From NCBI GenBank assembly GCA_028712595.1, contig JAQTPS010000002.1, positions 1-63,201 of the forward strand: a DNA stretch of 63,201 nucleotides, read 5' to 3'. This document shows, piece by piece, positions 5,301 to 58,876 of the stretch. The notes below the pieces were generated by a model, which worked only from the letters and a program-made list of their open reading frames with translations, was not told the DNA's origin and did no database searches. Position 1 is the stretch's first letter. Each line of letters begins with the position of its first letter. The position numbers and the translations under genes were made by a program. This DNA is from Minisyncoccota bacterium. Lineage in GTDB: Bacteria; Patescibacteriota; Minisyncoccia; Phycocordibacterales; UBA1550.

Positions 5301-5317
5301 GGGGGCCGATGGGAGTT

Positions 5318-44528: not shown

Positions 44529-47117
44529 CTATTGGTTACAACCATCAAAAAGACTTTGTTTTGCAAGCCATTTGTAAATTTTTTTCTCGTCCTTTTTCAA
44601 CCACAATATATTTGAATTAATCTTCTCAAGCGCTTGGAGAATAGTGCGGTCTGCGCTAGGAAGCGGATTCTCTTTGAAGAAAGTTTTTATATCGTCATGC
44701 ATCGATTTAAGTGTGTTGCGGTTGAGAACCGATACAATGGTTGACAACATATGGTTTCTTTTACCATATTCTTTTGTTATTTTTTTCCAATTTTTCTTTA
44801 TAAATTTCCAACCAAGAATACGGCCATACGGATTGATGAGCACGTACGCAAACCCGTATACCTTGTCCTGTAAACGAATATGGTCAGTCATAATAAATGC
44901 GAGTGCCTGCTTAAGGATTTTTCTGTCACGAGACGCCGTGAGCGCAAAGAACAGGCGGTCTTTTTCTTCGGGCATATTTTCTTTTTCACAAAGAGCCCTG
45001 ACTTCATCAAATTCTTTCTGACCACCATTCCGAACAATGCTTGCGTATATTAAACTGCGAAAATCTGCTCCGATTGGTTTGATTTTTCTATTTTTGAAAC
45101 GATTTTTTGCTTCTTCCACTACTTCGATATTCTCAAATGACGCCCCAGCGCTAAGAACAAGGATGCGTAAAAGCGCGTCGTTGTGTGGTTCTCCTTTTCG
45201 GGGCTCCCAGCCGACATAACTTATAATCTTCGACAAAATATTCTGCGCGTAAACTTTGAAAAGTTCATAGGATTTTGAACCGAATAAAAGATTATGGAGA
45301 GAAGCAAGCCCAGAAATGATTTCAACCCAAACAATATATTCTTTTTCATTTCTATAAGCCAAAAGCATTTCAAGCAAATAGACAACATCGGATTGTTCAG
45401 CTTCAGCAAGCGCAAATAAATCACGAATAATACCAAGTCTGTCTTGTGGTGTGAGCTTTTCTTCGGAAAGCGCTACTTTGAGCTTTGCCAAGAGATTACC
45501 GTCATACTGCGTGCGATACATTGAACCCTCAAAAGGATTAAGCTTTATGAAGGAGAGCGGAGCGGGTATTGAAATACTCTTTTTATCCATAAGCCCAAGT
45601 GATTCAACACCGTTTGAACTTATAAATGAAAGTGGTATCGGCCAAAGTGTTTTTTGTCCCGATTCCCTGGCGCTAACCCTGCTTGAAAAATACCGCTTTT
45701 GTGAAATATCCAACTTTTTACTTTTTTGATTGATTGACACAGAGACAAGCGGATAGCCCGACTTTTCTGTCCAGATTTCCATCATTTTTTTGACAGGTTT
45801 TTTGGAAATTTTTTCAAAAGCATCCCATAAATGGATAGTTCTCGTATTTTTGTAACTATGTTCTTTCAGATAGAAACGCAAGCCGTCACGAAAATCTTTT
45901 TCACCCAGATAGCTTGCAAGCATACCTATTACCGTAGCTCCCTTGCTGTAAGAAATAGCGTCAAACATTTCACAAATCTCGTCTGGGTTATGTATTTGAA
46001 CTTCTACAACGGGGTGAGTGTTTTTAAGCGCATCAAGCTTGAGCGAACGAGCGAGGTCGTCTGTCACAAATTTTTCCCAAATTTTCCATTCAGGGAAAAG
46101 CGTATCGATTACAATGTATGGCATGTACGACGCAAATCCTTCATTGAGCCAAAGGTCCGCCCACCATTCCATAGTGACTAAATTGCCAAACCACTGGTGT
46201 GTAATCTCGTGGACAATAACATTCGCAACACTTTCTCGCGCGGACGTAGAACTGTGTTCCTTGTCAACCAGAAGCAATTCTTCACGAAATGTTATGGCTC
46301 CCCAATTTTCCATTGCGCCAGCGGCAAAATCCGGAACTGCAATCAAATCAAGCGTATTGAGGGGGTATGGAATATCAAAATATTTTTCATAAAATTCCAA
46401 GGTACGAACTGCAACATCAAGCGCAAATTTCCCCTGCTCTTTTTTCCCAGGAACCGCGATAACTCGGACAAGGACGCCCGAGCTTGTTTTTTGCTCTAAC
46501 CATTCAAAATCACCAACAAGGAAAGCGAGAAGATATGTGGACATCTTCGGTGTCGGAGCGAAAGAGACGATTTCGAAACCAGCTCGATGCTTATTTGTTG
46601 CAACAGGCAAAGTGTTTGATACTGCGGTTTTATTTTTTGGAATAATCAAGTGCACTGCAAAAACTGCTTTCTGCGCTGGCTCGTCAAAACAAGGAATACA
46701 TCTACGCGCATCGGTCGCTTCAAACTGTGTTGCGGCCATAAAACGATTCTTCCCGCCCACCGCATACTTACTTTTATAAAAACCTCGCATATTATTTGCC
46801 AATATCCCAGAAAATTGAAGGTGAAGTCTTGTTTCACCTTTCTTTATTTGTTTTGAAAAGACGAATGTCGCTGTTTCTAATTCTTTGTCGTATAAAATTT
46901 TTTGTGCTTTTATTTTTTCTTTACCACACAAAAGATTGGCGCTCGTGATGTCTAAATCGTTTGAGTGCATGGTGATTTCTTTTACGTTTTTCTCCAGTTT
47001 AATCGTTATCGTTTCTTCCCCCTTAAAAGTATGAGCTTCAAGGTCTGGTTCAAGTGTAATTTCATAGTGGACCGGAAAAATATGTTTAGGCAGTCGTTCC
47101 GATTTATTTTTATCCAT
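44529..47117 (-). CDS. M1 family aminopeptidase (aminopeptidase N / ERAP-like, with an ERAP1-type C-terminal domain)
   Basis: GAMENWG and HEITHQWFGNLVTMEWWADLWLNEGFA (HExxH-18-E). Confidence 0.9.
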   Translation of the reverse strand: MDKNKSERLPKHIFPVHYEITLEPDLEAHTFKGEETITIKLEKNVKEITMHSNDLDITSANLLCGKEKIKAQKILYDKELETATFVFSKQIKKGETRLHLQFSGILANNMRGFYKSKYAVGGKNRFMAATQFEATDARRCIPCFDEPAQKAVFAVHLIIPKNKTAVSNTLPVATNKHRAGFEIVSFAPTPKMSTYLLAFLVGDFEWLEQKTSSGVLVRVIAVPGKKEQGKFALDVAVRTLEFYEKYFDIPYPLNTLDLIAVPDFAAGAMENWGAITFREELLLVDKEHSSTSARESVANVIVHEITHQWFGNLVTMEWWADLWLNEGFASYMPYIVIDTLFPEWKIWEKFVTDDLARSLKLDALKNTHPVVEVQIHNPDEICEMFDAISYSKGATVIGMLASYLGEKDFRDGLRFYLKEHSYKNTRTIHLWDAFEKISKKPVKKMMEIWTEKSGYPLVSVSINQKSKKLDISQKRYFSSRVSARESGQKTLWPIPLSFISSNGVESLGLMDKKSISIPAPLSFIKLNPFEGSMYRTQYDGNLLAKLKVALSEEKLTPQDRLGIIRDLFALAEAEQSDVVYLLEMLLAYRNEKEYIVWVEIISGLASLHNLLFGSKSYELFKVYAQNILSKIISYVGWEPRKGEPHNDALLRILVLSAGASFENIEVVEEAKNRFKNRKIKPIGADFRSLIYASIVRNGGQKEFDEVRALCEKENMPEEKDRLFFALTASRDRKILKQALAFIMTDHIRLQDKVYGFAYVLINPYGRILGWKFIKKNWKKITKEYGKRNHMLSTIVSVLNRNTLKSMHDDIKTFFKENPLPSADRTILQALEKINSNILWLKKDEKKIYKWLAKQSLFDGCNQ

Positions 47118-47170
47118 ATGTCTGGCACTATAACAGAAATCTCCATCTTGGGGAAATGCGCGAGTTTGTG

Positions 47171-47303
47171 TGGAACCAAGAGGATTCTCCTTCGACTAAA
47201 TTTTTGTCGTCACAAAAATTTGTCTAGGCACTGGCTCGCGGCCTTCGACAGCTTCCCCGACATCGCTCCGCCATTCGAATCCTCTACAAAAGCAAAACTT
47301 TTG
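47171..47303 (-). repeat. tRNA-linked structured module, Val copy (antisense tRNA segment - conserved core - hairpin - sense copy of the tRNA 3' end)
   Basis: See findings. Core 47222-47273, antisense T-arm copy 47274-47285, sense copy 47171-47187. Confidence 0.6.
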
Positions 47304-47377
47304 TGGATCCAAGAGGATTCGAACCTCTGACCTTTCGCGTGTGAAGCGAACGCTCTAACCAGCTGAGCTATGAATCC
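47304..47377 (-). tRNA. tRNA-Val (anticodon CAC), no encoded CCA
   Basis: Hand-folded cloverleaf: GGATTCA/TGGATCC acceptor, GCTC/GAGC D-stem, TTCGC-TTCACAC-GCGAA anticodon arm, AGAGG-TTCGAAT-CCTCT T-arm. Confidence 0.93.
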
Positions 47378-47426
47378 GTATTGAAATTTCCGCGGAAGCA
47401 TCCCATGCTTCCGGTTGAGAACAGTG

Positions 47427-47498
47427 TCGGGGTGCCGAGATTTGAACTCGGAGTCTCACGAACCCGAATCGCGCATGTTACCGTTACACTACACCCCG
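47427..47498 (-). tRNA. tRNA-Pro (anticodon CGG), no encoded CCA
   Basis: CGGGGTG/CACCCCG acceptor, CGCGA-TTCGGGT-TCGTG anticodon arm with G37, CCGAG-TTCAAAT-CTCGG T-arm. Confidence 0.9.
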
Positions 47499-47511
47499 AC
47501 ACTGTTCTCAA

Positions 47512-47548
47512 CCCCAAATCCCGCATGTTACCGTTACACTACGCCCCG
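47512..47548 (-). pseudogene. 5' half of a tRNA-Pro(UGG)-like gene (acceptor 5' strand through anticodon loop), with no 3' half
   Basis: 33/37 identity to the first 37 nt of the adjacent tRNA-Pro. The anticodon position reads TGG. No T-arm or CGCCCCG acceptor strand follows. Confidence 0.6.
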
Positions 47549-47605
47549 TATTGCTCTAGCAACATTCAGGTTACCAATTTTGCACCTTGTTGGCAATATA
47601 AAACT

Positions 47606-47636
47606 AAAAAGCCCACGCGATAATGTTGCGTGGGCT
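47606..47636 (-). terminator. rho-independent terminator after the 112-aa gene
   Basis: 8-bp stem gcccacgc/gcgtgggc, followed on the minus strand by T5. Confidence 0.6.
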
Positions 47637-47659
47637 TCAGTACAAAAAATTCGTTCTCG

Positions 47660-47998
47660 TTATGCAAGAGCAAACTTCTTGCTATTTTGTTCCATTCTCC
47701 AATTGTAGATTGCAGCTCCCTGCTCCCATATCTGGTCTAGTAGAATCTCGGCGCTTTTTTGCATATATTCGGTGATTTCTTCAGATGATTTGCGTTTTGC
47801 TAGGGCAAGACACTTTTTGATTATCTTGTCATCAAGTGGAATATTATCTCCTGTTTTTTCTTCCATAATTTTCGCCCACAAATGAGCGAAAATAACAACG
47901 CTGTGGTCATTTTTTTCTATCTGCGCAGAAATAAACCCTTCCATGCTTTTCAAACCTTGACGATACTTGATCTGTGGAAGTTTTACATGGTTTTCCAT
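47660..47998 (-). CDS. hypothetical protein (112 aa)
   Basis: ATG ORF with its own terminator; no recognisable domain. Confidence 0.45.
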   Translation of the reverse strand: MENHVKLPQIKYRQGLKSMEGFISAQIEKNDHSVVIFAHLWAKIMEEKTGDNIPLDDKIIKKCLALAKRKSSEEITEYMQKSAEILLDQIWEQGAAIYNWRMEQNSKKFALA

Positions 47999-48171
47999 AT
48001 AACATACTGGGGAAAAAGAAATAAAAAGAAACTGGGTTTTATAAAGAACTGGGCTTGGAATGAAAATTCCAATTAGTAGAAAACTGTATCACAAGACAGG
48101 ATTTTAGTCAAAACATCCCATAAATACTTGTGTCTTGTGGAAAAATGTTCGCTATTCGACAAAAATAGCTG

Positions 48172-48177
48172 TATAAT
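48172..48177 (+). promoter_or_regulatory. -10 box TATAAT, 8 nt before ATG 48186
   Basis: Read directly (ctgTATAATatatgtaaATG). Confidence 0.4.
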
Positions 48178-48185
48178 ATATGTAA

Positions 48186-49172
48186 ATGGAAAGCACTACG
48201 GTGGAACTTAAAAAAAGGGGTTCGTTTTGGATCAAAGTCGTCGCCCTTGGATGTGTATTTTTTCTTTTGTGTTATCTCCTCTGGCCAAACGGCGCTCCAT
48301 ACCAAAAGTACGAACAGTATTTTAGCGCCGAGAACGCCACACCCAAACAAATTGCTGACGAGCTTTATACGAAGGGCTATTTGAAAAATCGACTTTCATA
48401 TTTTACTTTGCTTATACAAAATGAAATTTTAAAAGGAATAAAAACAGGTGGATATTTTTTGTCAGCAAGTATGAACGTCGCAAGCATTTATGACTCCCTC
48501 TCACATCCGGAATACAAATCCATAACAATCGCGGAAGGTCTTCGCAAAGAAGAAATTGCGCAAATATATCAAAAAAATCTCAACTGGACAGACGCTGAAA
48601 CAGAAACGTTCGCAGAATCTCGGGCGTGCTATGCTGATGACTCCGAAGGGTATCTTTTCCCATCAACATACTATGTTGCTATTGATTCAAAACCAGAAGA
48701 AGTAAAGGAGCAAATGAAAAAACGTTTTGAGGAAACAGTTGGGTCGCCTATCGGGAGCAAAGACCAAGGCATTTTAAATCTTGACACCACGATTACCATT
48801 GCTTCTATCATCCAGCGAGAATCGGGGGGCAAAAAAGATATGAACCTCATTTCAGGAATCATCTGGAATCGCATTTTTGACAATATGGCTCTCGATATCG
48901 ATGCGACACTTCAATATGCTAAAGGCAATGATGGAAAATGGTGGCCAAAAGTTAAGCCTGAAGACAAATACATCAACTCTCCTTACAACACATATCAAAA
49001 TAAAGGTCTTCCACCGGGCGCAATCTCAAATCCAGGACTTGCGGCAATAGACGCGGCTCGCAATCCAGAAGACACCGATTGCTTATTTTATTTGCATGAC
49101 AAAAACAGAAAGATTCACTGCTCAAAGACATACGAGCAACACCTAGCGAAAATAAAGATTTATCTTAAATAG
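48186..49172 (+). CDS. mltG: endolytic murein transglycosylase MltG (YceG-like), paralog 2
   Basis: SIIQRESGG...DIDATLQYA...YNTYQNKGLPPGAISNPG. Confidence 0.82.
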   Translation: MESTTVELKKRGSFWIKVVALGCVFFLLCYLLWPNGAPYQKYEQYFSAENATPKQIADELYTKGYLKNRLSYFTLLIQNEILKGIKTGGYFLSASMNVASIYDSLSHPEYKSITIAEGLRKEEIAQIYQKNLNWTDAETETFAESRACYADDSEGYLFPSTYYVAIDSKPEEVKEQMKKRFEETVGSPIGSKDQGILNLDTTITIASIIQRESGGKKDMNLISGIIWNRIFDNMALDIDATLQYAKGNDGKWWPKVKPEDKYINSPYNTYQNKGLPPGAISNPGLAAIDAARNPEDTDCLFYLHDKNRKIHCSKTYEQHLAKIKIYLK

Positions 49173-49195
49173 TCCAGCTAGTTGGTGGGTCCAAC

Positions 49196-49242
49196 AAAAC
49201 AAGGACTGTCCTTTCTAAATTCTTAAGGACAGACCTTGTTTT
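49196..49242. terminator. bidirectional hairpin between convergent genes
   Basis: 18-bp stem with one mismatch: aaaacaaggactgtcctt / aaggacagaccttgtttt. Confidence 0.55.
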
Positions 49243-50402
49243 TAGCGTTGTTTTTTAAAAGTTTTAGCAATTGCTTTTACCACCCCCTTATCAAAAGGTT
49301 TAGGCAGAATACAATCTACTGTCGGCTTTTTTACGCACGAAGCCAGGGCTTCGGCAGATTTTACGAACATTTTTTGTTCAAATTGCGGTATTTTGCTATC
49401 TAATATTCCACGGAAAATGCCGGGGAAACCGAGAACATTATTCAGTTGGTTGGGAAAATCTGAACGACCGGTTGCAACAATAAAAGCCCCAGCGCTTTTG
49501 GCTTCATCCGGCATAATCTCCGGAGTTGGATTAGCCAAGGCAAAAATTATCGGCTTTTCATTCATAGTCCTTACCATATCTTTAGAAAGTAAGCCGGCCT
49601 TGCTTACTCCAATAAAAATATCTCGTCCTTTTATGGCGTGAGCTAAATCACCAGAAATTTTTTCATAGTCGCCAGTTTTTTCTTTGATGAATTGAAGTAG
49701 CTTTTTCTTTTCATTATTCAAATCCGAACGATTTTCTGACACAATTCCCCTACTATCAACTACAATTATTTTTTTGAAACCGTACAGGGCAAGCATCTTT
49801 GCGATAGCTGTTCCCGCTGCTCCGACTCCATTTATTAAAATTTTAACGTCACCCTTGCCGATCTTTCTTAATTTCAAAGAATTTATCAAACCAGCCAAAA
49901 CCACCGTCGCAGTCCCGTGTTGGTCATCATGCATTACAGGAATATCCAATTCTTTTCTTAACCTCTCTTCTATTTCAAAACAACGTGGAGCAGAGATGTC
50001 TTCCAAATTAATACCACCAAAAACCGGAGCGATTTGTTTGACTGCCTTAATTATTTCTTCCGTATCTTGCGTGTCTAAACAAATTGGAAAAGCGTCCACG
50101 CCAGAAAATTCTTTGAACAAGAGCGCCTTGCCTTCCATCACCGGTATCGCCCCCAAAGCTCCTAAATTACCCAAGCCCAATACAGCCGAACCGTCAGAGA
50201 CAACGGCAACCATATTTTTCTTAACGGTGTAGTCGTAAACCTTCTTGTGGTCTTTGGCAATTTCAAGACAGACCCCTGCCACACCCGGGGTATAAGCCAA
50301 AGAAAGATCCTCCTTGTTTTTTACTGCGACCTTGCTTTTTATCTCAATTTTACCCGAATGCTTTTTATGCAAAGCCAGCGACTTAGTATATATATTTTTC
50401 AT
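49242..50402 (-). CDS. NAD(P)-dependent malic enzyme (short, single-module form)
   Basis: LSLAYTPGVAGVCLEI...VAVVSDGSAVLGLGNLGALGAIPVMEGKALLFKEF. Confidence 0.9.
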   Translation of the reverse strand: MKNIYTKSLALHKKHSGKIEIKSKVAVKNKEDLSLAYTPGVAGVCLEIAKDHKKVYDYTVKKNMVAVVSDGSAVLGLGNLGALGAIPVMEGKALLFKEFSGVDAFPICLDTQDTEEIIKAVKQIAPVFGGINLEDISAPRCFEIEERLRKELDIPVMHDDQHGTATVVLAGLINSLKLRKIGKGDVKILINGVGAAGTAIAKMLALYGFKKIIVVDSRGIVSENRSDLNNEKKKLLQFIKEKTGDYEKISGDLAHAIKGRDIFIGVSKAGLLSKDMVRTMNEKPIIFALANPTPEIMPDEAKSAGAFIVATGRSDFPNQLNNVLGFPGIFRGILDSKIPQFEQKMFVKSAEALASCVKKPTVDCILPKPFDKGVVKAIAKTFKKQR

Positions 50403-50419
50403 GTGGCAAAATTATACCA

Positions 50420-51607
50420 CTATTTTTTCTTATTTTTTCTCCAAATAACCAAAAATGAAGCGAGAAGAATAGCTATCATTATCCACGCGCCAGTATTCCA
50501 AGTTATTACACCATTTCCGAAAAAAGCAGAAGCAGCTTGGTTTGAATTGTCTACTGCATTATTGTTTGCCGTAACTCCCGTCGAAGATGCTTGGTTCCCC
50601 TCTCCGTTTTGATTGCCTGTTGGTTCTCCGACACGGAAAGTGTTTGCGCCCGGCACGGCTACTTCTCCTTGAGCCACTGGATTATTTTGTTCCTCGGTTG
50701 GTGTAGCGAGAGCAAGCGTTGGATTGGTTTCAATTGTACCGTCTTTTCTCAACATAAAAGTATGCTCGTAGCTCACCGTTGGCGGAGATGCTCGCGATAT
50801 GACTCTATAAGAATATATTTGCTCCGGCACGAGTCCGAGAAGTGTAACGGTATGGTATGTCACTTTTGTTAAATCTTGAGCCGTCCCCTGTGGATACCCA
50901 AAATTGTCTAGCGTGAGATTTAATACGTACGGGCCACCTGAAGCCAAGCCGTAAACAACCTGACTTGTCGAAAGCAAGTTTGTATTCCAAGTTACAACCG
51001 CGCTATTCGTCTGTGGTGGCAAAGTGCTGTTTATGGACTCGTCACTTATAACAAGATATTTTGGGCCGATAATTATTGGTCCACCGCCAGCGCCTCCACC
51101 CACAGGATTTTGTTTGCCGACGGACACAGTTGTATCATCAACCACTACATCGAGGTCCTCAAAACCTATTTGAAGGTTAAAACCCATCGTGCTGTTTTGA
51201 TATTCATCGCCTGCCGTAGTTTTGAAAGTAGCGGTAAAGTCAAACTGCACCGATGAATTTGCCGGCACTTGCGGTAAGACTATTTCCGGTTTGCTAAACA
51301 AATCAGAGAAAGTATCGTCGTATAAAATCGTACTGTCTTGCTTTATTACAAGTCCTACGACACTTTTCAAATCCCCTGTGTTGCTTACATTAATAGTGCG
51401 CAAAATGGCGCGATGCGGAACTCCAGTCGTGTTGTTTAGTTTTACCCACTTGGTAACAGAATCACCCGGAACAAAATTCACACTGTTAAAAAGCGGACTT
51501 TGCTCAAATTGAACGGTCGACGCCTGTGCATTTGCCGGGCTGAAAGAACTCGCAAAAACCGTTGCTAGCAATGTTAGATATATTAAATTTTTAGTGATTT
51601 TATTCAT
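50420..51607 (-). CDS. exported protein: AxA signal peptide, TasA/camelysin-like N-domain, Gly linker, Fn3-like domain, C-terminal TM anchor + KKK
   Basis: SPANAQAS cleavage-like site, FVPGDSVTKWVKLNNTTG, VVTWNTNLLSTSQVVYG, and C-terminal WIMIAILLASFLVIWRKNKKK. Confidence 0.55.
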   Translation of the reverse strand: MNKITKNLIYLTLLATVFASSFSPANAQASTVQFEQSPLFNSVNFVPGDSVTKWVKLNNTTGVPHRAILRTINVSNTGDLKSVVGLVIKQDSTILYDDTFSDLFSKPEIVLPQVPANSSVQFDFTATFKTTAGDEYQNSTMGFNLQIGFEDLDVVVDDTTVSVGKQNPVGGGAGGGPIIIGPKYLVISDESINSTLPPQTNSAVVTWNTNLLSTSQVVYGLASGGPYVLNLTLDNFGYPQGTAQDLTKVTYHTVTLLGLVPEQIYSYRVISRASPPTVSYEHTFMLRKDGTIETNPTLALATPTEEQNNPVAQGEVAVPGANTFRVGEPTGNQNGEGNQASSTGVTANNNAVDNSNQAASAFFGNGVITWNTGAWIMIAILLASFLVIWRKNKKK

Positions 51608-51613
51608 GGTGAT

Positions 51614-53035
51614 TTATGGGGTTACGGGTGCTTCCGCTACGGCAGGCGTTTCTACCACAACCGCTGGCTCTGGTTCCGGAACGACTACCGGCTCAACCAC
51701 GGAAACAGGCTCTACGACAGGAGAATCGGGCTCTGCGATAGTCTCCTCTGTGGCTGTTGGTTCAACAATTGGAGCTACTGGTTCTGTTTCTGGAATCGCC
51801 TCGTCTTCTTGCGACGAAGAAGGGTCAACTGTCGGTGGTGTAGCCTCCGGAGGAGCCGAGATGCTTTCATCTGCATCAATCTGTTCAGGTATTGCGGGAG
51901 GAAGTGTGTCGTCGGGCACAACCTCATCAGTTGGTGGGTTTTGAACATCTGGAGGCGCGATCACTTCCGCCCCACCGCCACCCGTCGTCGCATCAGGCAA
52001 AGCATTCACCACTACTTCTTCTACTTTGTTTGACGTTCCAGGTGTTGGTATTGGATCAACCCAAGCTCCCACGCCATCAGGAATTCTAGCGTAAGAAAAT
52101 CCTTCTGGTTTTTCTGTGGTCCAAGAGTAGGAATCAACCAAAACTCCACCAAGACTAATTCTATTCGTAAACAATCTAATGCTATCCGCATCATTATTTA
52201 GAATAAAGTCACCATCGCCATTGCGGTAAACCACAAGGAATCCATGAGAAGCTATTGTGGTGCCACTGCCAGTGTGCGCATTATCCACCGGCACTTCTCC
52301 AACATCAGTAGAATCATAAATATACCAACCGTTCAGATCGAAGCTGACGTTGCTGTTGTTGTAAAGTTCCACCCATTCACCTCCCGGCATTGGCGCATCG
52401 TCTAGTCCAGTCGGATTTGGTAATACTTCGTTTAGTACCACCGCTTTGCCGATTCGAATAGAGCCCAGTTTTTCCTTTACGCTCGAAAAACCGGTGGACG
52501 AATTTGGTAAATCACCTTGCCAAGCTGTATAAGTCCATTTGAAGAAACAGGTTTTCCCCCACACGCTGGGCGGAGTGCTTGGGGCAACCGTAAAACCGAA
52601 ATTCCAAGCAGTGTTTGTTGTTGAGGTCGCGGTGGAAGTAAAATCTTTTATGAGTCCCGTGTAAGTGCTCGTCGGGCTGGTTGCAGTCATTGTGACATAG
52701 TCGCAAGCTGACACGTTGGCGCCAGAAAGTGTGGTTTTCGCAATATATTGAGAACCTAAACTGCCGGTATTTGAAATATTTATTGAAGTAGAAGTGCTGT
52801 CCGTCGGATACAACAAATCCGAATTAAAGGCGGTTGTAGAATCCATACCCAGAGTCAGAGTTCCCGCGGTTAAAGTATTTCCAACGGAGGACTCTGTATC
52901 ACTATAATATGCGACAGTTTCATTGACATTCAGAACGCCAGAGAAAATTGAGACGACAACCAAAACTGCTAACAATTTAGAAAATTGTTTTTTACTCCAA
53001 AAAAGATATTTACTGTTGTTCTGTAACATTTTCAT
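51614..53035 (-). CDS. exported protein: SipW-type signal, TasA-like N-domain, lamin-tail (LTD) domain, Pro/Glu/Val-rich tail
   Basis: VAYYSDTESSVGNTLTAGTL, VVLNEVLPNPTGLDDAPMPGGEWVELYN (LTD), and C-terminal PVVEPVSVVEPVVVPEPEPAVV. Confidence 0.6.
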   Translation of the reverse strand: MKMLQNNSKYLFWSKKQFSKLLAVLVVVSIFSGVLNVNETVAYYSDTESSVGNTLTAGTLTLGMDSTTAFNSDLLYPTDSTSTSINISNTGSLGSQYIAKTTLSGANVSACDYVTMTATSPTSTYTGLIKDFTSTATSTTNTAWNFGFTVAPSTPPSVWGKTCFFKWTYTAWQGDLPNSSTGFSSVKEKLGSIRIGKAVVLNEVLPNPTGLDDAPMPGGEWVELYNNSNVSFDLNGWYIYDSTDVGEVPVDNAHTGSGTTIASHGFLVVYRNGDGDFILNNDADSIRLFTNRISLGGVLVDSYSWTTEKPEGFSYARIPDGVGAWVDPIPTPGTSNKVEEVVVNALPDATTGGGGAEVIAPPDVQNPPTDEVVPDDTLPPAIPEQIDADESISAPPEATPPTVDPSSSQEDEAIPETEPVAPIVEPTATEETIAEPDSPVVEPVSVVEPVVVPEPEPAVVVETPAVAEAPVTP

Positions 53036-53573
53036 CTTTTTTTAATGCAACCTTTCCTTCCCTCATTTTTTTAATTTCCTTGATGATTTTTTGTATTTCA
53101 TCATAAACGATGATGACTGCCGGAATAACTATCACGAGCATCAAACCAACCGGCTTCTTCAAAAAATCCACAATGTACCCGAGAAATGGTATTGAAAAAT
53201 AAACCTTGCCCAAAACTTCTTTTTGCGAAACTTCCTTGCTGTCTTCGGAATTGTTGGCGTCGCCTCTTGTTTTGTAAACAATCTCGCCACTTACCGCTTT
53301 CATTTCTGCGATACGATGAGTGGTTGGAATTTCGGTTTTTGTATTTTTTCCGAAAGTTATAACATCCCCAATCTTATAATCAGAAATTGGTTTAATTATC
53401 ACCACACTTCCGGTATGAATGGTTGGCTCCATAGATCCGGACAGCACCGAAAGCACCTTGATATTGCCCGTAATTGGAAAAACAGAAACTATAAGCAAAG
53501 ACGCAAAAAATAATATTGCGATGAGTGCTATGTAGTAAATTGTTTTGAAGGTTTTTTGCATAGGGTACGTCAA
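53010..53573 (-). CDS. sipW: signal peptidase I, SipW/archaeal-ER type (S26B)
   Basis: LSGSMEPTIHTGSVVII...THRI...TRGDANN, plus a C-terminal TM segment. Confidence 0.8.
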   Translation of the reverse strand: MTYPMQKTFKTIYYIALIAILFFASLLIVSVFPITGNIKVLSVLSGSMEPTIHTGSVVIIKPISDYKIGDVITFGKNTKTEIPTTHRIAEMKAVSGEIVYKTRGDANNSEDSKEVSQKEVLGKVYFSIPFLGYIVDFLKKPVGLMLVIVIPAVIIVYDEIQKIIKEIKKMREGKVALKKDENVTEQQ

Positions 53574-53639
53574 AACTTAACTCAAAACCCCCATACTCAA
53601 TCCCTCTTGTTAGAGAGATTGAGAAGCGAGATTCGAAGT

Positions 53640-54317
53640 TTATTCTGTCACTCCACCACTGCCACCAACCTGTTCAAGAGAGGTGAGAACATCAAAACCT
53701 AGGGTATCTGTCTGTATGATATTTTGATTATATGCTGGATAAGTCCATGCTGTTGGAAGTTGCCACATAACAACTAGATCAACAGATTGATCAGCTGTCA
53801 TTGTCATTATATCGTTCCATCCTGTTAGCATATTGCTCACACTAGTGTAGTGAAAGTCACCACCCCAGAATCCTGGATAAATTGCTTTTTGTCCGCCATA
53901 GGCAAGCTGATAATCTCCGGCGTCAAAAACTCCATTTCTGTTCACATCGAGATAAGCGGCAATCACAAATGATAAATCCAAATCACCTCCGTTGTCATAG
54001 TCGCCAGCTTTTATTTCTGGATCAGTCAGAGGACCACCTTCAGATTGAACCATATTTGCGATTTTTACATCCAAATCACCATTCAAACTGCCTGTAGCGT
54101 TTGTCAGAGTAACTTTGCCTGTGCCAGATTGACCAGGATAAAGATTTGCAACGCTAAATGGAATTGGATTGCCAGCACCAAGCACTAAGTCCAATTTCCC
54201 AGCACTAAAGGTATTTCCTGTTGATGTCTCCGTATCCGAGAAGTAAGCGCGAGTTGCGCCGACTGCTCCGATGGCGACGGCTGCGATAACACTCAAGCTT
54301 AAGATAATTCTTTTCAT
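53640..54317 (-). CDS. TasA/CalY (camelysin, peptidase M73-like) family exported protein
   Basis: ATRAYFSDTETSTGNTFSAGKLDL SipW-type N-terminus, and LYPGQSG...VTLTNATGSL. Confidence 0.7.
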   Translation of the reverse strand: MKRIILSLSVIAAVAIGAVGATRAYFSDTETSTGNTFSAGKLDLVLGAGNPIPFSVANLYPGQSGTGKVTLTNATGSLNGDLDVKIANMVQSEGGPLTDPEIKAGDYDNGGDLDLSFVIAAYLDVNRNGVFDAGDYQLAYGGQKAIYPGFWGGDFHYTSVSNMLTGWNDIMTMTADQSVDLVVMWQLPTAWTYPAYNQNIIQTDTLGFDVLTSLEQVGGSGGVTE

Positions 54318-54334
54318 AGTTTATTTCTTAATTA

Positions 54335-54838
54335 TTATTGTTGAACAGCATCAAAGGTAACACCCAAGTTGCCACTCAATCCCTGATAGCCGTTTCCAGC
54401 ACCTGCAGGGAAAGTAATGTCTACTTCACCTGCGTCACTAGCGTCAGTACCACCAACTGCTGACAAAGCTTCGGTAGTAGTGGCTACACCATCAACTCTA
54501 ACCGCACTGACAACTGGCGCATTTGGATTTTGTAACCCGGAAGTAGCTAGATCTTCATCAACTGACATAATAGCCCCACTAAGTGCTGTTGAAACAGTGT
54601 AATTAAGTGGCAAAGATCCTACATTGTTAACATTAAGAGTTAACGTTTTTACATCGCCCGGTTTCATATTTGTAACATCGGTTGTATAAGTAGCTGTACC
54701 AAGTGTTATATCCAAAGTTCCAGCTGTAAACGTATTTCCTGTGGATGTCTCTGTATCCGAGAAGTAAGCGCGAGTTGCGCCGACTGCTCCGATGGCGACG
54801 GCTGCGATAACACTCAAACTCAAAAGAATTCTTTTCAT
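54335..54838 (-). CDS. TasA/CalY-like exported protein, short paralog
   Basis: The first 38 residues match the neighbouring paralog except at positions 4-5 (II vs IL). MKPGDVKTLTLNVNNVGSLPL. Confidence 0.65.
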   Translation of the reverse strand: MKRILLSLSVIAAVAIGAVGATRAYFSDTETSTGNTFTAGTLDITLGTATYTTDVTNMKPGDVKTLTLNVNNVGSLPLNYTVSTALSGAIMSVDEDLATSGLQNPNAPVVSAVRVDGVATTTEALSAVGGTDASDAGEVDITFPAGAGNGYQGLSGNLGVTFDAVQQ

Positions 54839-54906
54839 ATTTTTACTTTATTTCTAAACTAATTAATTTCTAATAATATTCACCTGATAAAACTTTTCTA
54901 CTTTAC

Positions 54907-54943
54907 AAAAAGCAAGCGATTGGTTCCCAATCGCTTGCTTTTT
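54907..54943. terminator. strong bidirectional terminator hairpin
   Basis: 17-bp stem aaaaagcaagcgattgg / ccaatcgcttgcttttt with a 3-nt loop. Confidence 0.6.
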
Positions 54944-55314
54944 TAATGAACTATCTTCATAAAACTTCGCTCTCGCAAGTTAGTTTTATCTGCATATAAA
55001 TATATACCATACCTGTAGGGTGTCAATCGAAAATAGCGTTTGTTCTCTTTATTTTTTGCTGGTTTTGTCGCTCCCCTCGCACGAGGACTTTACAATAGTT
55101 GTGGACTGTGTTTCGGTACCAAACTAGCCCCTTATTTTGATGCGTTTTCTATCGGACATTCAGATGTCCGATAGAAAGTCAATCTGGGAAGGACGGTCCT
55201 TCCCAGATTTCGGGAGAGAGAATCTCCTTCGAGTAAATTCCTCGACGCAAAGCAAGCAATTGCTTTGCTACTATCTTGTGTGGTCACAAGTTACTAAATT
55301 TTGCCGTCAAAGAA

Positions 55315-55461
55315 GCCGGGAGAGAGAATCTCCCGCGACTCAAAGTTCGTCGTCACTCACTTTGGTCTGGGCACTGCCTCGTCTGTTTCGCAAGCTTGCG
55401 AAACATGACTGCGGCATTCGATTCTCTACGCAAGACGCACCAGCGTCTTGCTCTCCCGGCA
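55315..55461 (-). repeat. tRNA-linked structured module, Leu copy
   Basis: See findings. Antisense copy 55417-55461 (split by a hairpin), core 55366-55416, sense copy 55315-55330. An extra sense copy lies at 55211-55224. Confidence 0.58.
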
Positions 55462-55476
55462 CAAAAACGCGAACCC

Positions 55477-55504
55477 AAAAAGAGTGGACTGCTCCACTCT
55501 TTTT
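55477..55504 (-). terminator. hairpin terminator right after tRNA-Leu
   Basis: agagtgga/tccactct stem extended by an A5/T5 tract. Confidence 0.55.
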
Positions 55505-55512
55505 CGTTTTTG

Positions 55513-55594
55513 TGCCGGGAGAGAGAATCGAACTCTCATGGATTACTCCGCACGATTTTGAGTCGTGTGCGTCTACCAATTCCGCCATCCCGGC
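55513..55594 (-). tRNA. tRNA-Leu (anticodon CAA), long variable arm, no encoded CCA
   Basis: GCCGGGA/TCCCGGC acceptor, CACGA-CTCAAAA-TCGTG anticodon arm, 13-nt variable arm, GAGAG-TTCGATT-CTCTC T-arm. Confidence 0.93.
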
Positions 55595-55667
55595 AATCAA
55601 TCAATAGTATCAGAAAAGCGACGAAAATCAATCGCGTTTGTGAATAGATTATGAAAAGGCTCTAGTG

Positions 55668-55673
55668 TATAAT
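55668..55673 (+). promoter_or_regulatory. -10 box TATAAT, 6 nt before ATG 55680
   Basis: Read directly (agtgTATAATatatgtATG). Confidence 0.4.
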
Positions 55674-55679
55674 ATATGT

Positions 55680-56645
55680 ATGAACAAAATCAGGGTGGGC
55701 GTAATGCGTGGAGGACTTGGTGGAGAATATTATGTATCGCTCAAAACAGGAGCCAATGTTCTCGCAAACTTGCCAAGATATCGTTATGAACCGCACGACA
55801 TACTCATAACAAATATGGGCGAGTGGAACATAGACGGCATTCCCACATCTCCGTCAAAACTTATGCAACGTGTTGACGTTGTTTTTAATGCTCTTCACGG
55901 TGAGTTTGGTGAAGACGGTAAAGTGCAAACTATTCTCGAACGTCACAATGTTCCTTACACCGGCTCGGCTCCTCTCGCGTCAGCTATTGGTATGAACAAA
56001 GAGCTTGCGAAGAAATATTTTTCTTCGGTTGGCATAAAAGTGCCTCGTGGCGTTGTGGTGTCGCGAGGAGAAGAAGTGGGCGAAGTTGTGGACAAAGTTA
56101 CAGCCGAAATAAAAGCTCCCTACGTTGTGAAGCCACTTACTGGTGGATCGTCAATCGGACTTTCTTTCGTGCAAGCAGAAAAAGAACTTGTGCCTGCAAT
56201 AGAGACCGCGCTCGCGCATTCCGAAAAAGCTCTCATTGAAGAGTATGTGCACGGGCGTGAAATTACTGTCGGAGTTATTGATTCGGGGAATGATGAAATT
56301 GCGTATGTGACACCACCGATGGAAGTGCTCCTTTCTTCTGGAGTTCTTTTTGATTACAACAAAAAATACCGCGACGCTAAACATCCAGTAGGTCCTGCTC
56401 GTATGAACGAAGCGGAGCGCAAATCAATCGAGGAAGTAGCGCTTCTTGCGCACAAAAAACTTGGAATCCGCCACTATGCAGAATATGATTTTATCTTGAC
56501 CGAGAATGGTCCATACCTACTCGAAGTCAATACGCTTCCAGCCCTTACAGAAACTTCGTTACTCAAGAAATCTCTTGACTTGCATGGTTTGTCATTCCCG
56601 GATTTTCTTGATTACGTGTTGACACTTGCATTACGGAAAAAATAA
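55680..56645 (+). CDS. ddl: D-alanine--D-alanine ligase
   Basis: ORF 55665..56645, ATG at 55680. FNALHGEFGEDGKVQ, VVKPLTGGSSIG, and EVNTLPALT. Confidence 0.92.
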   Translation: MNKIRVGVMRGGLGGEYYVSLKTGANVLANLPRYRYEPHDILITNMGEWNIDGIPTSPSKLMQRVDVVFNALHGEFGEDGKVQTILERHNVPYTGSAPLASAIGMNKELAKKYFSSVGIKVPRGVVVSRGEEVGEVVDKVTAEIKAPYVVKPLTGGSSIGLSFVQAEKELVPAIETALAHSEKALIEEYVHGREITVGVIDSGNDEIAYVTPPMEVLLSSGVLFDYNKKYRDAKHPVGPARMNEAERKSIEEVALLAHKKLGIRHYAEYDFILTENGPYLLEVNTLPALTETSLLKKSLDLHGLSFPDFLDYVLTLALRKK

Positions 56646-56683
56646 GGTAGAATATCGAAACAAGGGCTAAATACCCTTTAGTT

Positions 56684-56757
56684 GGGCCCGTAGCTCATTT
56701 GGCTAGAGCGCCTGTTTTGCACTCAGGAGGTAAGGAGTTCGACTCTCCTCGGGTCCA
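56684..56757 (+). tRNA. tRNA-Ala (anticodon TGC), G3:U70 present, no encoded CCA
   Basis: GGGCCCG/CGGGTCC acceptor with G3-T70, anticodon loop TTTGCAC, AGGAG-TTCGACT-CTCCT T-arm. Confidence 0.93.
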
Positions 56758-56760
56758 CAT

Positions 56761-56802
56761 CAAACAAAAAAGCCGGAGAATCATCTCCGGCTTTTTTGTT
56801 TG
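56761..56802 (+). terminator. rho-independent terminator (19-bp perfect stem, bidirectional shape)
   Basis: caaacaaaaaagccggaga / tctccggcttttttgtttg with loop atca. Confidence 0.7.
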
Positions 56803-56812
56803 ACTATTGGTT

Positions 56813-57073
56813 CCTCGAGGAGAGTCGAATGGCGGAACGATGCCGAGCAAGCTTGCGAGGCCGTGAGCCAGTGCCCAGCCCGAGCCGAGTGGCGACGAGG
56901 CGAGAGGCGCGGGCGACTCTCCTCGGGTGGCGAGCCAGTGCCCAGAGTTTCTCGAGCGACGGCGAGAGAAAACTCGAGGGCAAGAAATAAAAGAGTACAC
57001 CACTAAAACCGTGAGCCAGTGCCCAGCCCGAGCCAAGTGGCGACGAGGCGAGAGTCGCGGGCGACTCTCCTCG
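56813..57073 (+). repeat. tRNA-linked structured module, Ala copies (one full unit 56813-56928 plus a second rearranged unit; 65-nt direct repeat 56861-56925 / 57009-57073)
   Basis: See findings. G+C-rich, and carries the same core as the Val and Leu loci. Confidence 0.6.
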
Positions 57074-57091
57074 AGCTTTCTGTTTTCCCAT

Positions 57092-57119
57092 TTGCCAATT
57101 TTCCCCATTTGTTTAGTAT
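57092..57119 (+). promoter_or_regulatory. promoter, -35 TTGCCA / 16 nt / -10 TAGTAT, 8 nt before ATG 57128
   Basis: Hexamers read directly. Confidence 0.4.
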
Positions 57120-57127
57120 CTATACTA

Positions 57128-58867: not shown

Positions 58868-58876
58868 ATTTTTATG

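Follow-up and report, generated by a model that had tools for sequence, protein, structure and literature searches.

We report a family of small, structured elements, each about 115 nt long, that lie immediately 3' of tRNA genes and in which an antisense copy of the T-arm of the neighbouring tRNA (AS) is followed by a conserved core and then by a sense copy of the 3' end of the same tRNA (S2). The family is described here from the copy that follows tRNA-Val(CAC), at 47171-47303 on the minus strand of the analysed window, by which we mean the whole 63-kb stretch. The element is predicted to fold as a Y-shaped three-way junction, in which a core of two arms is conserved and the closing helix is tailored to each tRNA. 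The reading that we favour, to which we attach a probability of roughly 0.45, is that the element may be transcribed by read-through from the tRNA promoter and act in cis on the 3' half of the pre-tRNA, as a clamp that exchanges strands with its own tRNA.

If it is real at the RNA level, the family represents a class of structured RNA, without counterpart in Rfam or the literature, whose specificity helix is written from the neighbouring tRNA; a full-text literature search found no description of such an element. If the clamp reading is true, the maturation or fate of tRNAs in the ultra-small, genome-reduced CPR bacteria could be set tRNA by tRNA, by means of an antisense/sense clamp encoded in cis. 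The family also poses the puzzle of how inverted and direct copies of a 12-40-nt target are formed whenever the core reaches a new tRNA. Furthermore, annotators gain a covariance model and an architecture rule, which account for much of the 'empty' DNA after the tRNA genes of Paceibacteria, and experimenters gain a small, testable and programmable candidate RNA switch.

Architecture and fold of the Val copy

The template of both arms of the module is S1, positions 54-73 of tRNA-Val, and the trailer directly after the gene reads CAA rather than CCA. The parts of the element are collected in Table 1. The preliminary description had placed this layout correctly to the base on the minus strand; its division of the interior into a core and a separate hairpin did not hold, since these are really the two arms, P2 and P3/P4, of the three-way junction.

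Table 1. Parts of the Val copy and its flanks, with the basis of each assignment
Feature	Position	Strand	Basis or remark
tRNA-Val(CAC)	47304-47377 (ARAGORN 47303-47377)	-	ARAGORN; Rfam tRNA, 71.7 bits
Trailer palindrome, weak A/U hairpin ACAAAAG-TTTTG-CTTTTGT	47286-47304	-	sequence; without U-tract
AS AGAGGATTCGAA	47274-47285	-	exact reverse complement of tRNA-Val positions 54-65 (12-nt run from T54)
Core as delimited in the preliminary description	47222-47273	-	sequence
Predicted arm P2	47232-47273	-	covariation UGGC/GCCA, UGCC/GGCA, UAGC/GCUA
Junction GUG between P2 and P3	47229-47231	-	invariant alignment columns
Predicted arm P3/P4	47189-47228	-	Y:R and M:K covariation; P4 stem covariation
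P4 hairpin AAATTTTTGT-GACG-ACAAAAATTT	47198-47221	-	10 bp, GACG loop
S2 GAATCCTCTTGGTTCCA	47171-47187	-	sense copy of tRNA positions 57-73; 16/17 against the gene, GAATCCTCTTGGATCCA
Spacer from S2 to pepN (M1 aminopeptidase)	47118-47170	-	53 nt; pepN ATG at 47117

The AS of the Val copy is the complement of the T-loop and of the 3' strand of the T-stem, and has no acceptor part. In the closed form it provides the 5' strand of the closing helix P1, the 3' strand of which consists of the S2 bases 47179-47187, leaving unpaired the last three bases of AS (GAA, 47274-47276) and the acceptor part of S2, in which the single mismatch to the gene, A69U, is found. Inward of the closing pairs UGGC/GCCA of P2 (47270-47273 with 47232-47235), an internal loop GGA/GA is followed by a stem of 3 bp, a bulged AU and a variable hairpin whose loop is of the AGCU type. 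The junction lies within the invariant stretch GAGSCAGUGCCYAG, and beyond it P3, with outer pairs CCU/AGG and inner pairs GAC/GUC, encloses the P4 hairpin; other copies have a tandem G.A in P3/P4 in place of UU/AA. Trailer palindromes are present in all copies, the weak A/U hairpin of the Val type being exchanged elsewhere for long, palindromic, terminator-like hairpins.

Folded alone with RNAfold, the Val module adopts the closed form, with a 9-bp AS:S2 helix and two arms (-39.7 kcal/mol, z = -2.3). On this structure the aligned copies have compensatory changes on both sides in 29 of 40 pairs, with 88% of the cells paired, and a covariation score of 0.56, against 0.19 or less in slid controls and reached by none of 500 shuffles. 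RNAalifold independently recovers the identical fold, as does RNAfold on single sequences. These predictions, together with pair counts in which G.U/U.G (13) exceed A.C/C.A (6), uphold the earlier proposal that the antisense and sense copies pair with one another and so close the module. Tandem G.A/A.G pairs occupy 31 cells and replace Watson-Crick pairs at three sites. The excess of G.U and the tandem G.A pairs identify the strand of the tRNA as the functional strand, since on the opposite strand, which we reject, the tandem G.A would turn into C.U mismatches.

The fold resembles no family that we could name. Rfam 15, searched with cmscan over window positions 45000-59000 at E up to 10, returned four tRNAs and chance hits of miRNA-type models to palindromes, the core being unmatched by any family, among them T-box, tmRNA, hammerhead, twister, pistol, hatchet, HDV-like, YrlA and the group I/II intron domains; the junction was also compared by eye with the consensus of the hammerhead, box C/D, H/ACA, group II domain V, sarcin-ricin and K-turn motifs, none of which fits. 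No conserved box C/D or H/ACA motif flanks AS in the twelve aligned copies inspected by eye, and the Rfam snoRNA hits fall elsewhere, far below threshold. The TIGR-Tas dual-spacer guide arrays of CPR bacteria, with 36-nt units, box C/D-like repeats and adjacent non-overlapping spacers, were considered and rejected (PMC12045711).

A family linked to tRNA genes

The window contains three full copies, after tRNA-Val, tRNA-Leu and tRNA-Ala, and across about ten related Paceibacteria (CPR) assemblies the element also follows tRNAs for Trp, Asn, Ser, Val, Pro, Leu, Ala and Tyr. A model-free census compared the sequences downstream and upstream of 39 tRNAs from about ten assemblies. The layout sought was an exact reverse complement of the T-loop from T54, followed by the core and by a sense copy of positions 61-73, in many cases with a terminal CCA; it was found downstream of 24 of these tRNAs and upstream of none. 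In these 24 copies the exact run of AS, starting at T54, is 10-19 nt long; upstream of the same tRNAs the longest antisense matches reach at most 9 nt and the longest sense matches at most 8 nt, bar one of 11. The downstream layout of the Val type is thus far above chance. The covariance model agrees: every hit in the window and at related loci lies just 3' of a tRNA and on its strand, with none away from a tRNA, which bears out the suggestion that the Val element is one copy of a tRNA-linked module.

The core is common to more than ten tRNA specificities. An exact-pattern scan found the type I motif in 2 assemblies among 185,579 species representatives, and a second, related core type (type II), with the same architecture, occurs in more distant relatives. 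Two genomes that share only about 75% identity in their coding DNA both have modules at tRNA-Leu and tRNA-Ala. The 12 hits of a loose core pattern in IMG/VR are all fortuitous and fall in coding DNA rich in G+C, and a blastn search with the Val module found nothing in 50,697 phage records.

The genes downstream differ from copy to copy and include pepN, miaA, a TasA-like gene and small ORFs, or there is a terminator. The Val module does occupy the leader of pepN, as had been noted, which does not extend to a conserved link: the pepN loci of relatives have no tRNA or module upstream, and when the pepN and TasA-like loci of relatives were followed by synteny the tRNAs were absent. The closest pepN relative (P0122, 88% identity) has 684 nt upstream of the gene.

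Two proposed partners for the antisense arm

In outline, the clamp would work as follows. The module would be transcribed by read-through from the tRNA promoter, and AS would have two mutually exclusive partners, S2 or the genuine T-arm. In one state (A) AS and S2 would be paired and the Y closed, which would leave the tRNA free to fold as usual and to be cleaved off. In the other (B) AS would sit on the genuine T-arm and S2 could fill the vacated place on the tRNA body, supplying the T-stem/acceptor strand with its encoded CCA. The conserved Y core would be the likely site for a candidate protein or ligand that sets the balance between A and B, and the candidate outputs are gating of the maturation of read-through pre-tRNA, marking of transcripts for cleavage, or provision of a tRNA-like end on the downstream RNA.

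The conservation of the two arms bears on this reading. In 24 of 24 copies AS is 100% identical to the complement of its tRNA over positions 54-61; the identity is 91-95% at 62-64 and about 50% thereafter, while that of S2 to its tRNA is only 59-68% at 57-60 and 86-95% at 62-72, with at least 10 of 13 matches between S1 and S2 at positions 61-73 in 22 of the 24 copies. AS is conserved where it would pair with the real tRNA, and S2 where it is able to replace the 3' strand of that tRNA; state A is insufficient to account for this pattern, which A and B account for together. AS also tracks the T-loop where orthologues differ, with TTCGATT/AATCGAA in the window and TTCAATT/AATTGAA in a relative, and the changes in S2 are mostly transitions that keep a G.U with AS (GAGC to GGGU in R_Val; C to U in G_Ser). 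S2 ends in CCA in at least six copies, the corresponding genes of which carry CAA, CAG, CAT or CTG; among the sampled tRNAs there is no clear association between an encoded CCA and absence of the module.

The idea that AS could equally pair with the genuine T-arm gains further support from folding of the full read-through transcript, tRNA plus module, in which the minimum-free-energy (MFE) structure pairs the 3' strand of the T-stem with AS in the Val, Leu and Ala copies. This structure is 5-12 kcal/mol better than the cloverleaf plus closed module by nearest-neighbour energies, which ignore the tertiary structure of the tRNA. In the Leu copy the tRNA body then uses S2, and the Val structure is a variant of state B with a duplex between the 5' acceptor strand and the GAAUCC of S2. 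The acceptor mismatch of S2 and the missing acceptor part of AS in the Val copy also speak against the clamp. In vivo, state B may not be populated at all, given that the tRNA is the first to fold and that the energies neglect its tertiary structure.

A more specific form of the clamp, which we hold only tentatively, makes the Y-shaped core a sensor of a protein or small ligand that would decide whether AS stays locked, and the tRNA matures, or the T-arm is invaded, with S2 and its CCA substituting; it is part of the same tentative claim that the elements would form a new class of cis-regulatory RNA with arms rewritten at each new tRNA, and that they would control the maturation of tRNAs one by one or give rise to a chimeric RNA with the body of a tRNA.

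Any form of the clamp depends on read-through. No promoter or terminator was called between tRNA-Val and pepN (minus strand, 46900-47800), and since no such site was called in the 53-nt spacer, pepN is probably read through from the tRNA-Pro/tRNA-Val transcript. In the Leu and Ala copies terminator-like hairpins stand between the tRNA and AS, with the module beyond them, and there read-through past these strong hairpins is assumed. In lying directly 3' of a tRNA on its strand, the module resembles dicistronic tRNA-ncRNA genes (plant tRNA-snoRNA genes, MALAT1-mascRNA and bacterial 3'ETS sRNAs), in which an ncRNA adjoins a tRNA or tRNA-like unit and is probably split from it by tRNA-processing enzymes; those RNAs, however, are not known to carry antisense and sense copies of the tRNA or to form a family tailored to many tRNAs, as the module does. 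A point against the clamp is that modules can decay or disappear without obvious harm, and so are not essential at each tRNA.

Two features of the arms could have other origins. The exact AS could be kept by a process at the level of DNA instead, of which gene conversion within a palindrome appears unlikely: the exact segment is only 11-19 nt long, a deleted acceptor part or an inserted hairpin (P0) often stands between it and the trailer palindrome, and in tandem arrays AS lies up to about 230 nt from the tRNA. The CCA of S2, instead of having been selected, could be an ancestral feature or a product of reverse transcription. We also rejected an intron in the T-loop, with S2 as the true 3' exon, given that S1 yields a perfect cloverleaf and that S2 is often defective in its T-loop part (GGGU in R_Val) or mismatched in the acceptor (Val). 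The module recalls the non-canonical introns and split tRNAs of archaea, where extra sequence associated with the T-loop pairs with exon sequence, and module loci also hold orphan tRNA halves with complementary leader and trailer; in contrast to the archaeal cases, the tRNA gene is uninterrupted, there is no bulge-helix-bulge and the host is a bacterium with sigma-70-type promoters and intrinsic terminators.

Mobile elements and other explanations

The family behaves as a duplicative, recombining repeat, as shown by tandem units, decayed copies, gain and loss at orthologous tRNAs and mosaic cores. It is possible, though doubtful, that the module is selfish, a mobile or duplicative element without autonomy (comparable to a MITE, a SINE or an intron) and with the T-loop and 3' end of tRNA genes as its homing site. 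S1 and S2 would then be a long target duplication that spares the tRNA, AS a by-product of insertion through a fold-back or hairpin intermediate, and the Y fold would serve propagation or recognition by a trans-acting enzyme rather than the host. Full or partial units stand in tandem after tRNA-Ala, -Leu, -Trp and -Glu; decayed relics include one at a Yonathbacteria tRNA-Ala and a hybrid remnant at tRNA-Val of L044; the cores are mosaic and do not follow orthology; and the narrow distribution of the type I motif is in keeping with such an origin. The adjacent Pro and Val genes also differ in occupancy. The window has its module after Val, whereas relative R, whose tRNA-Val(CAC) has none, has one with Pro-type arms before Val, and the core of that Pro-type module is 86% identical to the Val core of the window (97% in P3/P4). 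In R_Pro the similarity of S2 and trailer runs over 41 nt, as is typical of DNA duplication. A CCA-ended copy of a gene that has no CCA is a classic sign of copying from mature tRNA, and the CCA of S2 would suit a reverse-transcribed copy.

Set against a purely mobile origin, no copy was found away from a tRNA with the covariance model, the copies within one genome are only 53-92% identical, with no recent burst, and in copies that persist at orthologous tRNAs, despite a coding divergence of about 25%, compensation maintains the helices. Neutral decay after insertion does not predict an AS that remains exact and an S2 that drifts. Pfam and NCBIfam scans of the 63-kb window turned up no transposase, no integrase or other recombinase and no reverse transcriptase; they covered 48 of the 64 longest non-overlapping ORFs of at least 90 aa, that is most of those above about 160 aa and several shorter ones, those outside the scans being nearly all below about 170 aa. 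We know of no transposition chemistry that yields both an inverted and a direct copy of a 12-40-nt target. As compared with MITEs and IS-derived repeats, the sole inverted repeat of the module is derived from its target (AS/S2), the duplication spans 12-41 nt, the copies are 50-92% identical and tRNAs are their only sites.

Small, multi-copy, folded non-coding repeats are familiar as REP/BIME, Correia and RPE elements, and tRNA genes are safe harbours in compact genomes. The module shares these properties with the bacterial repeats, and its link to tRNA genes with the TRE elements of Dictyostelium and Ty3 of yeast; REP-like repeats, however, are not tRNA-linked and TRE and Ty3 are eukaryotic coding retroelements, the module being otherwise on both counts, and to our knowledge none of these elements builds a terminal helix from the sequence of its target. 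An antisense tRNA 3' region embedded in another element also recalls the primer-binding sites of retroviruses and LTR elements and the tRNA-containing cDNA copies of the Mauriceville plasmid. Unlike a primer-binding site, which is complementary to the terminal ~18 nt of the mature tRNA with its CCA, AS covers positions 54-64 (54-65 only in the Val copy) and, where longer, follows the genomic trailer (CAA...) rather than CCA; the sense copy lies on the same strand and the ORFs scanned nearby include no reverse transcriptase. A mobile origin and a host-level switch can both hold, so that this explanation is compatible with the clamp.

We think it improbable that the module is a stable, tRNA-like small RNA that acts in trans once released from the precursor, imitating the acceptor/T-stem minihelix of its own tRNA and carrying an encoded CCA. 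Such an RNA might be a substrate or decoy for RNase P, the CCA-adding enzyme, a synthetase, EF-Tu or tRNA-targeting toxins, or an antisense or dual-strand guide against the tRNA or its gene. In its favour, S2 keeps the 3' strands of T-stem and acceptor, often with NCCA, and many copies have an antisense segment like the acceptor 5' strand, with hairpin P0 inserted exactly at the acceptor/T-stem junction; the copies with P0 (W_Leu, Y_Asn, R_Val, L043 Trp and L044 Leu) thus combine an acceptor-like helix, one arm and a T-stem-like helix. In Y_Asn a terminator follows S2, so that the module can be a discrete RNA. Yet, although the T-stem replica and the acceptor strand of S2 are conserved, the 5' acceptor strand is missing in several copies, leaving the acceptor mimic absent (W_Val, G_Ser, R_Pro) or degenerate (W_Ala, R_Ser); ARAGORN and Rfam call no tRNA-like or tmRNA-like gene, and mimicry leaves the exact T-loop antisense unexplained.

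Scars of classical integrase-mediated integration at tRNA 3' ends (attL/attR), from which the island has been mostly deleted, are a very improbable explanation, and one that the covariation goes most of the way to refute. The hallmark of such integration is a direct repeat of the tRNA 3' end that starts in the T-loop, and attL/attR partial-tRNA repeats amass next to tRNA genes and leave the tRNA intact (10.1101/2020.12.28.424599). The module shares this flanking repeat with the islands of tycheposons and P4-like integrases, and the same genomes contain partial-tRNA repeats without a core, at tRNA-Gln (L031) and tRNA-Pro(GGG) (L044), as well as orphan 5' halves of tRNA-Pro. In place of a tyrosine or serine recombinase gene and kb-scale cargo, however, the module has a non-coding insert of only about 95-190 nt, the repeats lie about 115-190 nt apart, and the DNA between them encodes a conserved RNA fold of 115 nt that covaries, with one core for more than ten tRNA specificities and an additional exact antisense copy; no integrase remnant was found among the ORFs scanned in the 63-kb window.

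We likewise give hardly any credence to the module as a 5' leader or riboswitch for the gene that it precedes, here pepN; no downstream gene is conserved, which makes this unlikely. The short spacer before the pepN ATG, in which no promoter or terminator was called, would suit a leader, and, as in riboswitch and attenuator platforms, the helix that closes the junction shares a strand with an exclusive alternative helix. Downstream genes differ between copies, relatives' pepN genes have no module before them and the linkage goes to the upstream tRNA; in contrast to riboswitches and attenuators, the alternative partner is not a terminator and lies upstream, inside the tRNA. The module contains tRNA-specific sequence, as does a T-box, although there is no RF00230 hit or T-box motif and the downstream genes are unrelated; where a T-box pairs with the anticodon and NCCA in trans, the module is complementary to the T-arm and would pair with it in cis.

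Layout and fold of the module

The window, a complete contig of 63,201 bp, belongs to a Candidatus Pacebacteria/Paceibacterota MAG (CPR), as one of its proteins matches the database entry at 100%. It carries the module, a Y-shaped RNA element of about 115 nt built around a three-way junction, after tRNA-Val(CAC), tRNA-Leu(CAA) and tRNA-Ala(UGC) (see the table). The coordinates that the preliminary description assigned to the Val module are all correct by the sequence, ARAGORN and Rfam, and the sense copy of the tRNA-Val 3' end claimed there matches gene positions 57-73 at 16 of 17 places. The Leu and Ala copies each take their antisense arm (AS, the reverse complement of T-loop and T-stem) and their sense copy of the tRNA 3' strand (S2) from their own tRNA, not tRNA-Val, and comparison of arms and genes shows that the module arms are derived from the tRNA. 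In the Leu copy, where the core precedes an S2 identical to the gene (16/16), a long palindrome spans the tRNA 3' end through the terminator-like hairpin.

Features of the module copies and their surroundings in the window
Feature	Position	Strand	Remarks
tRNA-Val(CAC)	47304-47377	minus	ARAGORN; Rfam 71.7 bits
A/U palindrome CAAAAG-TTTTG-CTTTTG(T)	47286-47303	minus	next after tRNA-Val
AS of Val copy, AGAGGATTCGAA	47274-47285	minus	exact reverse complement of tRNA positions 54-65
Unique 52-nt stretch of Val copy	47222-47273	minus	
10-bp hairpin of Val copy	47198-47221	minus	GACG loop
AGTCGAAGGA	between 10-bp hairpin and S2 of Val copy	minus	
S2 of Val copy, GAATCCTCTTGGTTCCA	47171-47187	minus	
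pepN ORF (M1 aminopeptidase)	start 47117		downstream of Val module
Leu module copy	~55315-55511	minus	after tRNA-Leu(CAA)
Leu acceptor-5'-like antisense segment	55451-55460	minus	after terminator-like hairpin
Leu extra hairpin P0	55431-55450	minus	exactly at acceptor/T-stem junction
TTAGTAACTTGTGACCACACAAG after Leu S2	55275-55297	minus	remnant of type II core 3' arm
Ala module copy	~56758-56929	plus	after tRNA-Ala(UGC); then two partial 3' units up to 57077
Ala partial '3' half' units	~56930-56975 and 57009-57077	plus	GAGCCAGTGCCCAG, P3/P4, S2-like stretch
tRNA-Pro features (orphan half, inverted repeat)	47499-47548 and 47413-47426	minus	
Orphan tRNA-Pro 5' half	47512-47548	minus	37 nt; anticodon TGG; ends at position 37
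112-aa ORF	47660-47998	minus	beside tRNA cluster

The fold was first derived by eye on an alignment of twelve full type I copies (125 columns). The closing helix P1, in which AS pairs with S2, is followed by an unpaired GAA, arm P2, GU(G), arm P3/P4, a single A and S2. Arm P2 leads from a closing UGSC/GSCA helix through an internal loop GGA/GA and a 3-bp stem to an AU bulge and a variable hairpin whose loop is AGCW, and P3/P4 reads CCY-A-GMC, the P4 hairpin with its GRCG loop, and GKC-GN-RGG. Paired cells make up 88% of this alignment, and both sides have changed at 29 of the 40 pairs. The covariation score is 0.56, against at most 0.19 for partners displaced by 1-3 columns, and 500 shuffles never attain it. 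RNAalifold, run without the by-eye fold as input, recovers the junction with 36 pairs, 28 of them compensatory, and the proposed AS:S2 closure of the Val module is borne out by RNAfold, which places the Val copy alone in the junction fold (-39.7 kcal/mol, z = -2.3). The type II copies described below have the same arms and covary independently, with GC, CG, AU and GU as P2 closing pairs and an outer P3 helix GGUC/GACC with UA, CG and GC variants. The alignments thus show a new, covariation-supported RNA fold.

Its polarity is apparent from the exceptions to Watson-Crick pairing. The model-fitted alignment holds 13 G.U/U.G against 6 A.C/C.A cells, and 31 G.A/A.G cells stand as tandem pairs in place of Watson-Crick pairs at three sites; since these would be C.U mismatches on the opposite strand, the selected molecule is the tRNA-sense strand, most simply as RNA. 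Linkage to the 3' side of tRNA genes is strict: a home-built covariance model of the type I alignment, the E-values of which are rough, matches only just 3' of a tRNA and on the tRNA strand, in the window and all related loci.

Distribution and turnover

No Rfam family matches the module at any E up to 10, and no prior description of such an element was found in Rfam 15 or the full-text literature searched. An exact-pattern scan covered 185,579 species-representative genomes as well as other large collections; among the species representatives, real copies are confined to a Yonathbacteria MAG, where they follow tRNA-Trp and tRNA-Asn, and one 5-kb contig, where tRNA-Ser(GGA) precedes the module. 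The scan of JGI metagenomes added one Hainich contig and a 583-kb contig, R, in which copies follow Val(GAC), Ser(CGA), Leu, Ala and a tRNA-Pro fragment, with a partial one after Glu. IMG/VR and phage records gave chance matches or nothing. In all these genomes tRNA-Leu and tRNA-Ala have a Ddl gene between them, and six more relatives were gathered through Ddl (64-84% protein identity). These carry a second, related core (type II) in an unchanged layout, intact in the relatives L041-L045 and often in tandem: tRNA-Trp is followed by two units, tRNA-Ala by three or more. Units that combine type I and type II stand after Glu and Ala in R and after Val in L044.

A model-free census took the 39 tRNAs called by ARAGORN in the window and ten related loci (about ten partial assemblies) and searched, tRNA by tRNA, for an antisense copy of the T-loop and then for a sense repeat of the 3' strand. 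An exact antisense run of 10-19 nt, starting exactly at T54 and abutting the core, lies 18-230 nt downstream of 24 of the 39, and 22 of these 24 then show a sense copy that agrees with positions 61-73 at 10 or more of the 13 places. Upstream of the same tRNAs antisense runs reach at most 9 nt and sense runs 8 nt, apart from a single one of 11. The architecture is thus a real, directional and common feature of the clade, with the proviso that the counts are not all independent, as copies partly share ancestry (those at Trp especially). The specificities with this layout are Trp, Ala, Leu, Val, Ser, Asn, Tyr and Pro, together with Glu in partial form.

Modules at tRNA-Leu and tRNA-Ala are common to the window and R; coding DNA is ~73-77% identical between the two, the orthologous Leu and Ala cores only 62-67%. 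The Val core is 89% identical to that after Val(GAC) in R and 86% to that of the R Pro locus, rising to 97% in P3/P4. Nearest relatives differ from arm to arm, so cores recombine among loci. At the adjacent Pro and Val genes the module follows Val in the window and a Pro-armed module precedes Val in R, where tRNA-Val(CAC) ends in CCA and the next gene is only 29 nt off; L044 keeps a decayed hybrid remnant after Val, and Yonathbacteria tRNA-Ala only part of P2 and S2. The family is also rich in partial 3' units and tandem arrays. It thus undergoes gain, loss and duplication and rewrites its arms. The Ala partial units overlap an annotated 5' extension of the miaA ORF, and the order tRNA-Ala, module(s), miaA recurs in R.

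Two implied partners for the antisense arm

Over the 24 copies, AS is 100% identical to the tRNA at positions 54-61, 91-95% at 62-64 and then ~50%; S2 is 59-68% identical at 57-60, 81% at 61 and 86-95% at 62-72. AS follows a T-loop change between orthologues (TTCGATT/AATCGAA in the window, TTCAATT/AATTGAA in R), and S2 changes are mostly transitions that preserve G.U with AS (GAGC to GGGU in the R Val copy; C to U in the Ser copy G_Ser). The antisense acceptor part is absent, degenerate or split off by P0 in many copies, Val included. CCA directly follows S2 in Yonathbacteria Trp and Asn, R Ser, L041 Trp, L044 Leu and L045 Trp, with CCC in L042 Trp and CCG in L041 Ala, where the genes themselves have CAA, CAG, CAT or CTG. 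Nearly all tRNA genes in the window and related loci, with or without a module, continue from the discriminator into CA(A/G/T/C), not CCA, the exceptions being tRNA-Ser of L020 and tRNA-Val(CAC) and tRNA-Gln of R. A closed module alone requires neither exact antisense to 54-60 nor an exact S2 acceptor strand with CCA; both constraints would follow from a second pairing of AS, with the real T-arm, after which S2 can take its place on the tRNA body. The conservation patterns thus imply two partners for AS.

That AS could equally pair with the genuine T-arm had been proposed for Val, and the folds agree, the read-through minimum-energy structures placing AS on the T-stem 3' strand for Val (-73.1 kcal/mol, against -67.7 for cloverleaf plus closed module), Leu (-136.9 against -125.0) and Ala (-128.5 against -123.1); in that of Leu, the tRNA 5' half takes S2 as T-stem and acceptor partner. 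As these energies take no account of tRNA tertiary structure or of the order of folding during transcription, we regard the two states as close competitors.

Our preferred reading of these computational results, to which we give slightly less than an even chance (about 0.45), is that in read-through transcripts the module clamps the 3' half of the pre-tRNA in cis by strand exchange. AS would pair either with S2, closing the module, or with the T-arm of its own tRNA, whereupon S2 could occupy the tRNA body; the Y core would be the site at which a factor sets the balance. As candidate outputs, it might gate tRNA maturation, dispose of read-through RNA or give the RNA downstream a tRNA-like end. 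The main rival, less probable and compatible with such a switch, is a selfish duplicative element, with AS and S2 as products of the way it inserts. No integrase, transposase or reverse transcriptase was found in the 48 scanned of the 64 longest non-overlapping window ORFs (at least 90 aa), which are housekeeping genes or lack a family match, nearly all those left unscanned being below ~170 aa. A trans-acting tRNA mimic is less likely again, as are classical att scars, with which the direct repeat of the tRNA 3' part would fit. A role as pepN leader is likewise less likely: the module does adjoin pepN here, as first described, but relatives' pepN genes have no tRNA or module upstream and the position is incidental. 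No promoter-like or terminator-like sites were called between tRNA-Val and pepN; promoters and terminators of the window are, by eye, of bacterial type.

Among known systems, integrase-borne islands have in common with the module a direct repeat of the tRNA 3' part, riboswitches and attenuators a P1 strand that also serves an alternative helix, tRNA-ncRNA dicistrons the proposed co-transcription, and primer-binding sites the principle of antisense to a tRNA, but the module departs from each of them in defining features.

Neighbouring tRNA fragments and repeats

The orphan tRNA-Pro 5' half lies directly upstream of tRNA-Pro(CGG), itself enclosed by an inverted repeat of 12-13 nt in leader and trailer (ttgagaacagtg / cactgttctcaa); in R the repeat has another sequence yet remains complementary (taacatcagtg / cactgatgtta) and hence covaries. 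The R Pro locus (L031 14262-14734, equal to L040 ~7990-8470) holds two orphan tRNA-Pro 5' halves and a full tRNA-Pro(CGG), then a tRNA-Pro 3' half with a 16-nt variable-region insertion and the module, whose S2 acceptor CATCCCG matches orphan half B (CGGGATG) and whose S2 trailer is complementary to the linker after half A, an interleaved and not nested arrangement. For the 112-aa ORF of the window, Pfam gives a weak match below threshold to the Thoeris inhibitor Tad4 (E = 2e-4; 21.9 bits, cut-off 25).

At L031 1927-2060, two partial 3' fragments of tRNA-Gln (anticodon arm onward), each preceded by AAACAGTCAATAG, stand after the tRNA-Gln gene; they have no module core and look like classical repeated integration scars. 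At L044 20172-20300, a perfect 24-nt direct copy of the 3' end (T-arm to discriminator) stands 34 nt beyond tRNA-Pro(GGG), with neither antisense copy nor core. Yonathbacteria tRNA-Leu(CAA) (L018 ~5250-5540, minus) has no module, and the ORF after it is by eye a putative LAGLIDADG homing endonuclease (..IIGVAIGDGNLS..). At L041 4961-5040, the tRNA-Tyr terminator palindrome has no core and its stem reaches 12 nt into the acceptor/T-stem 3' strand, so trailer palindromes overlapping a tRNA 3' end also exist without the module.
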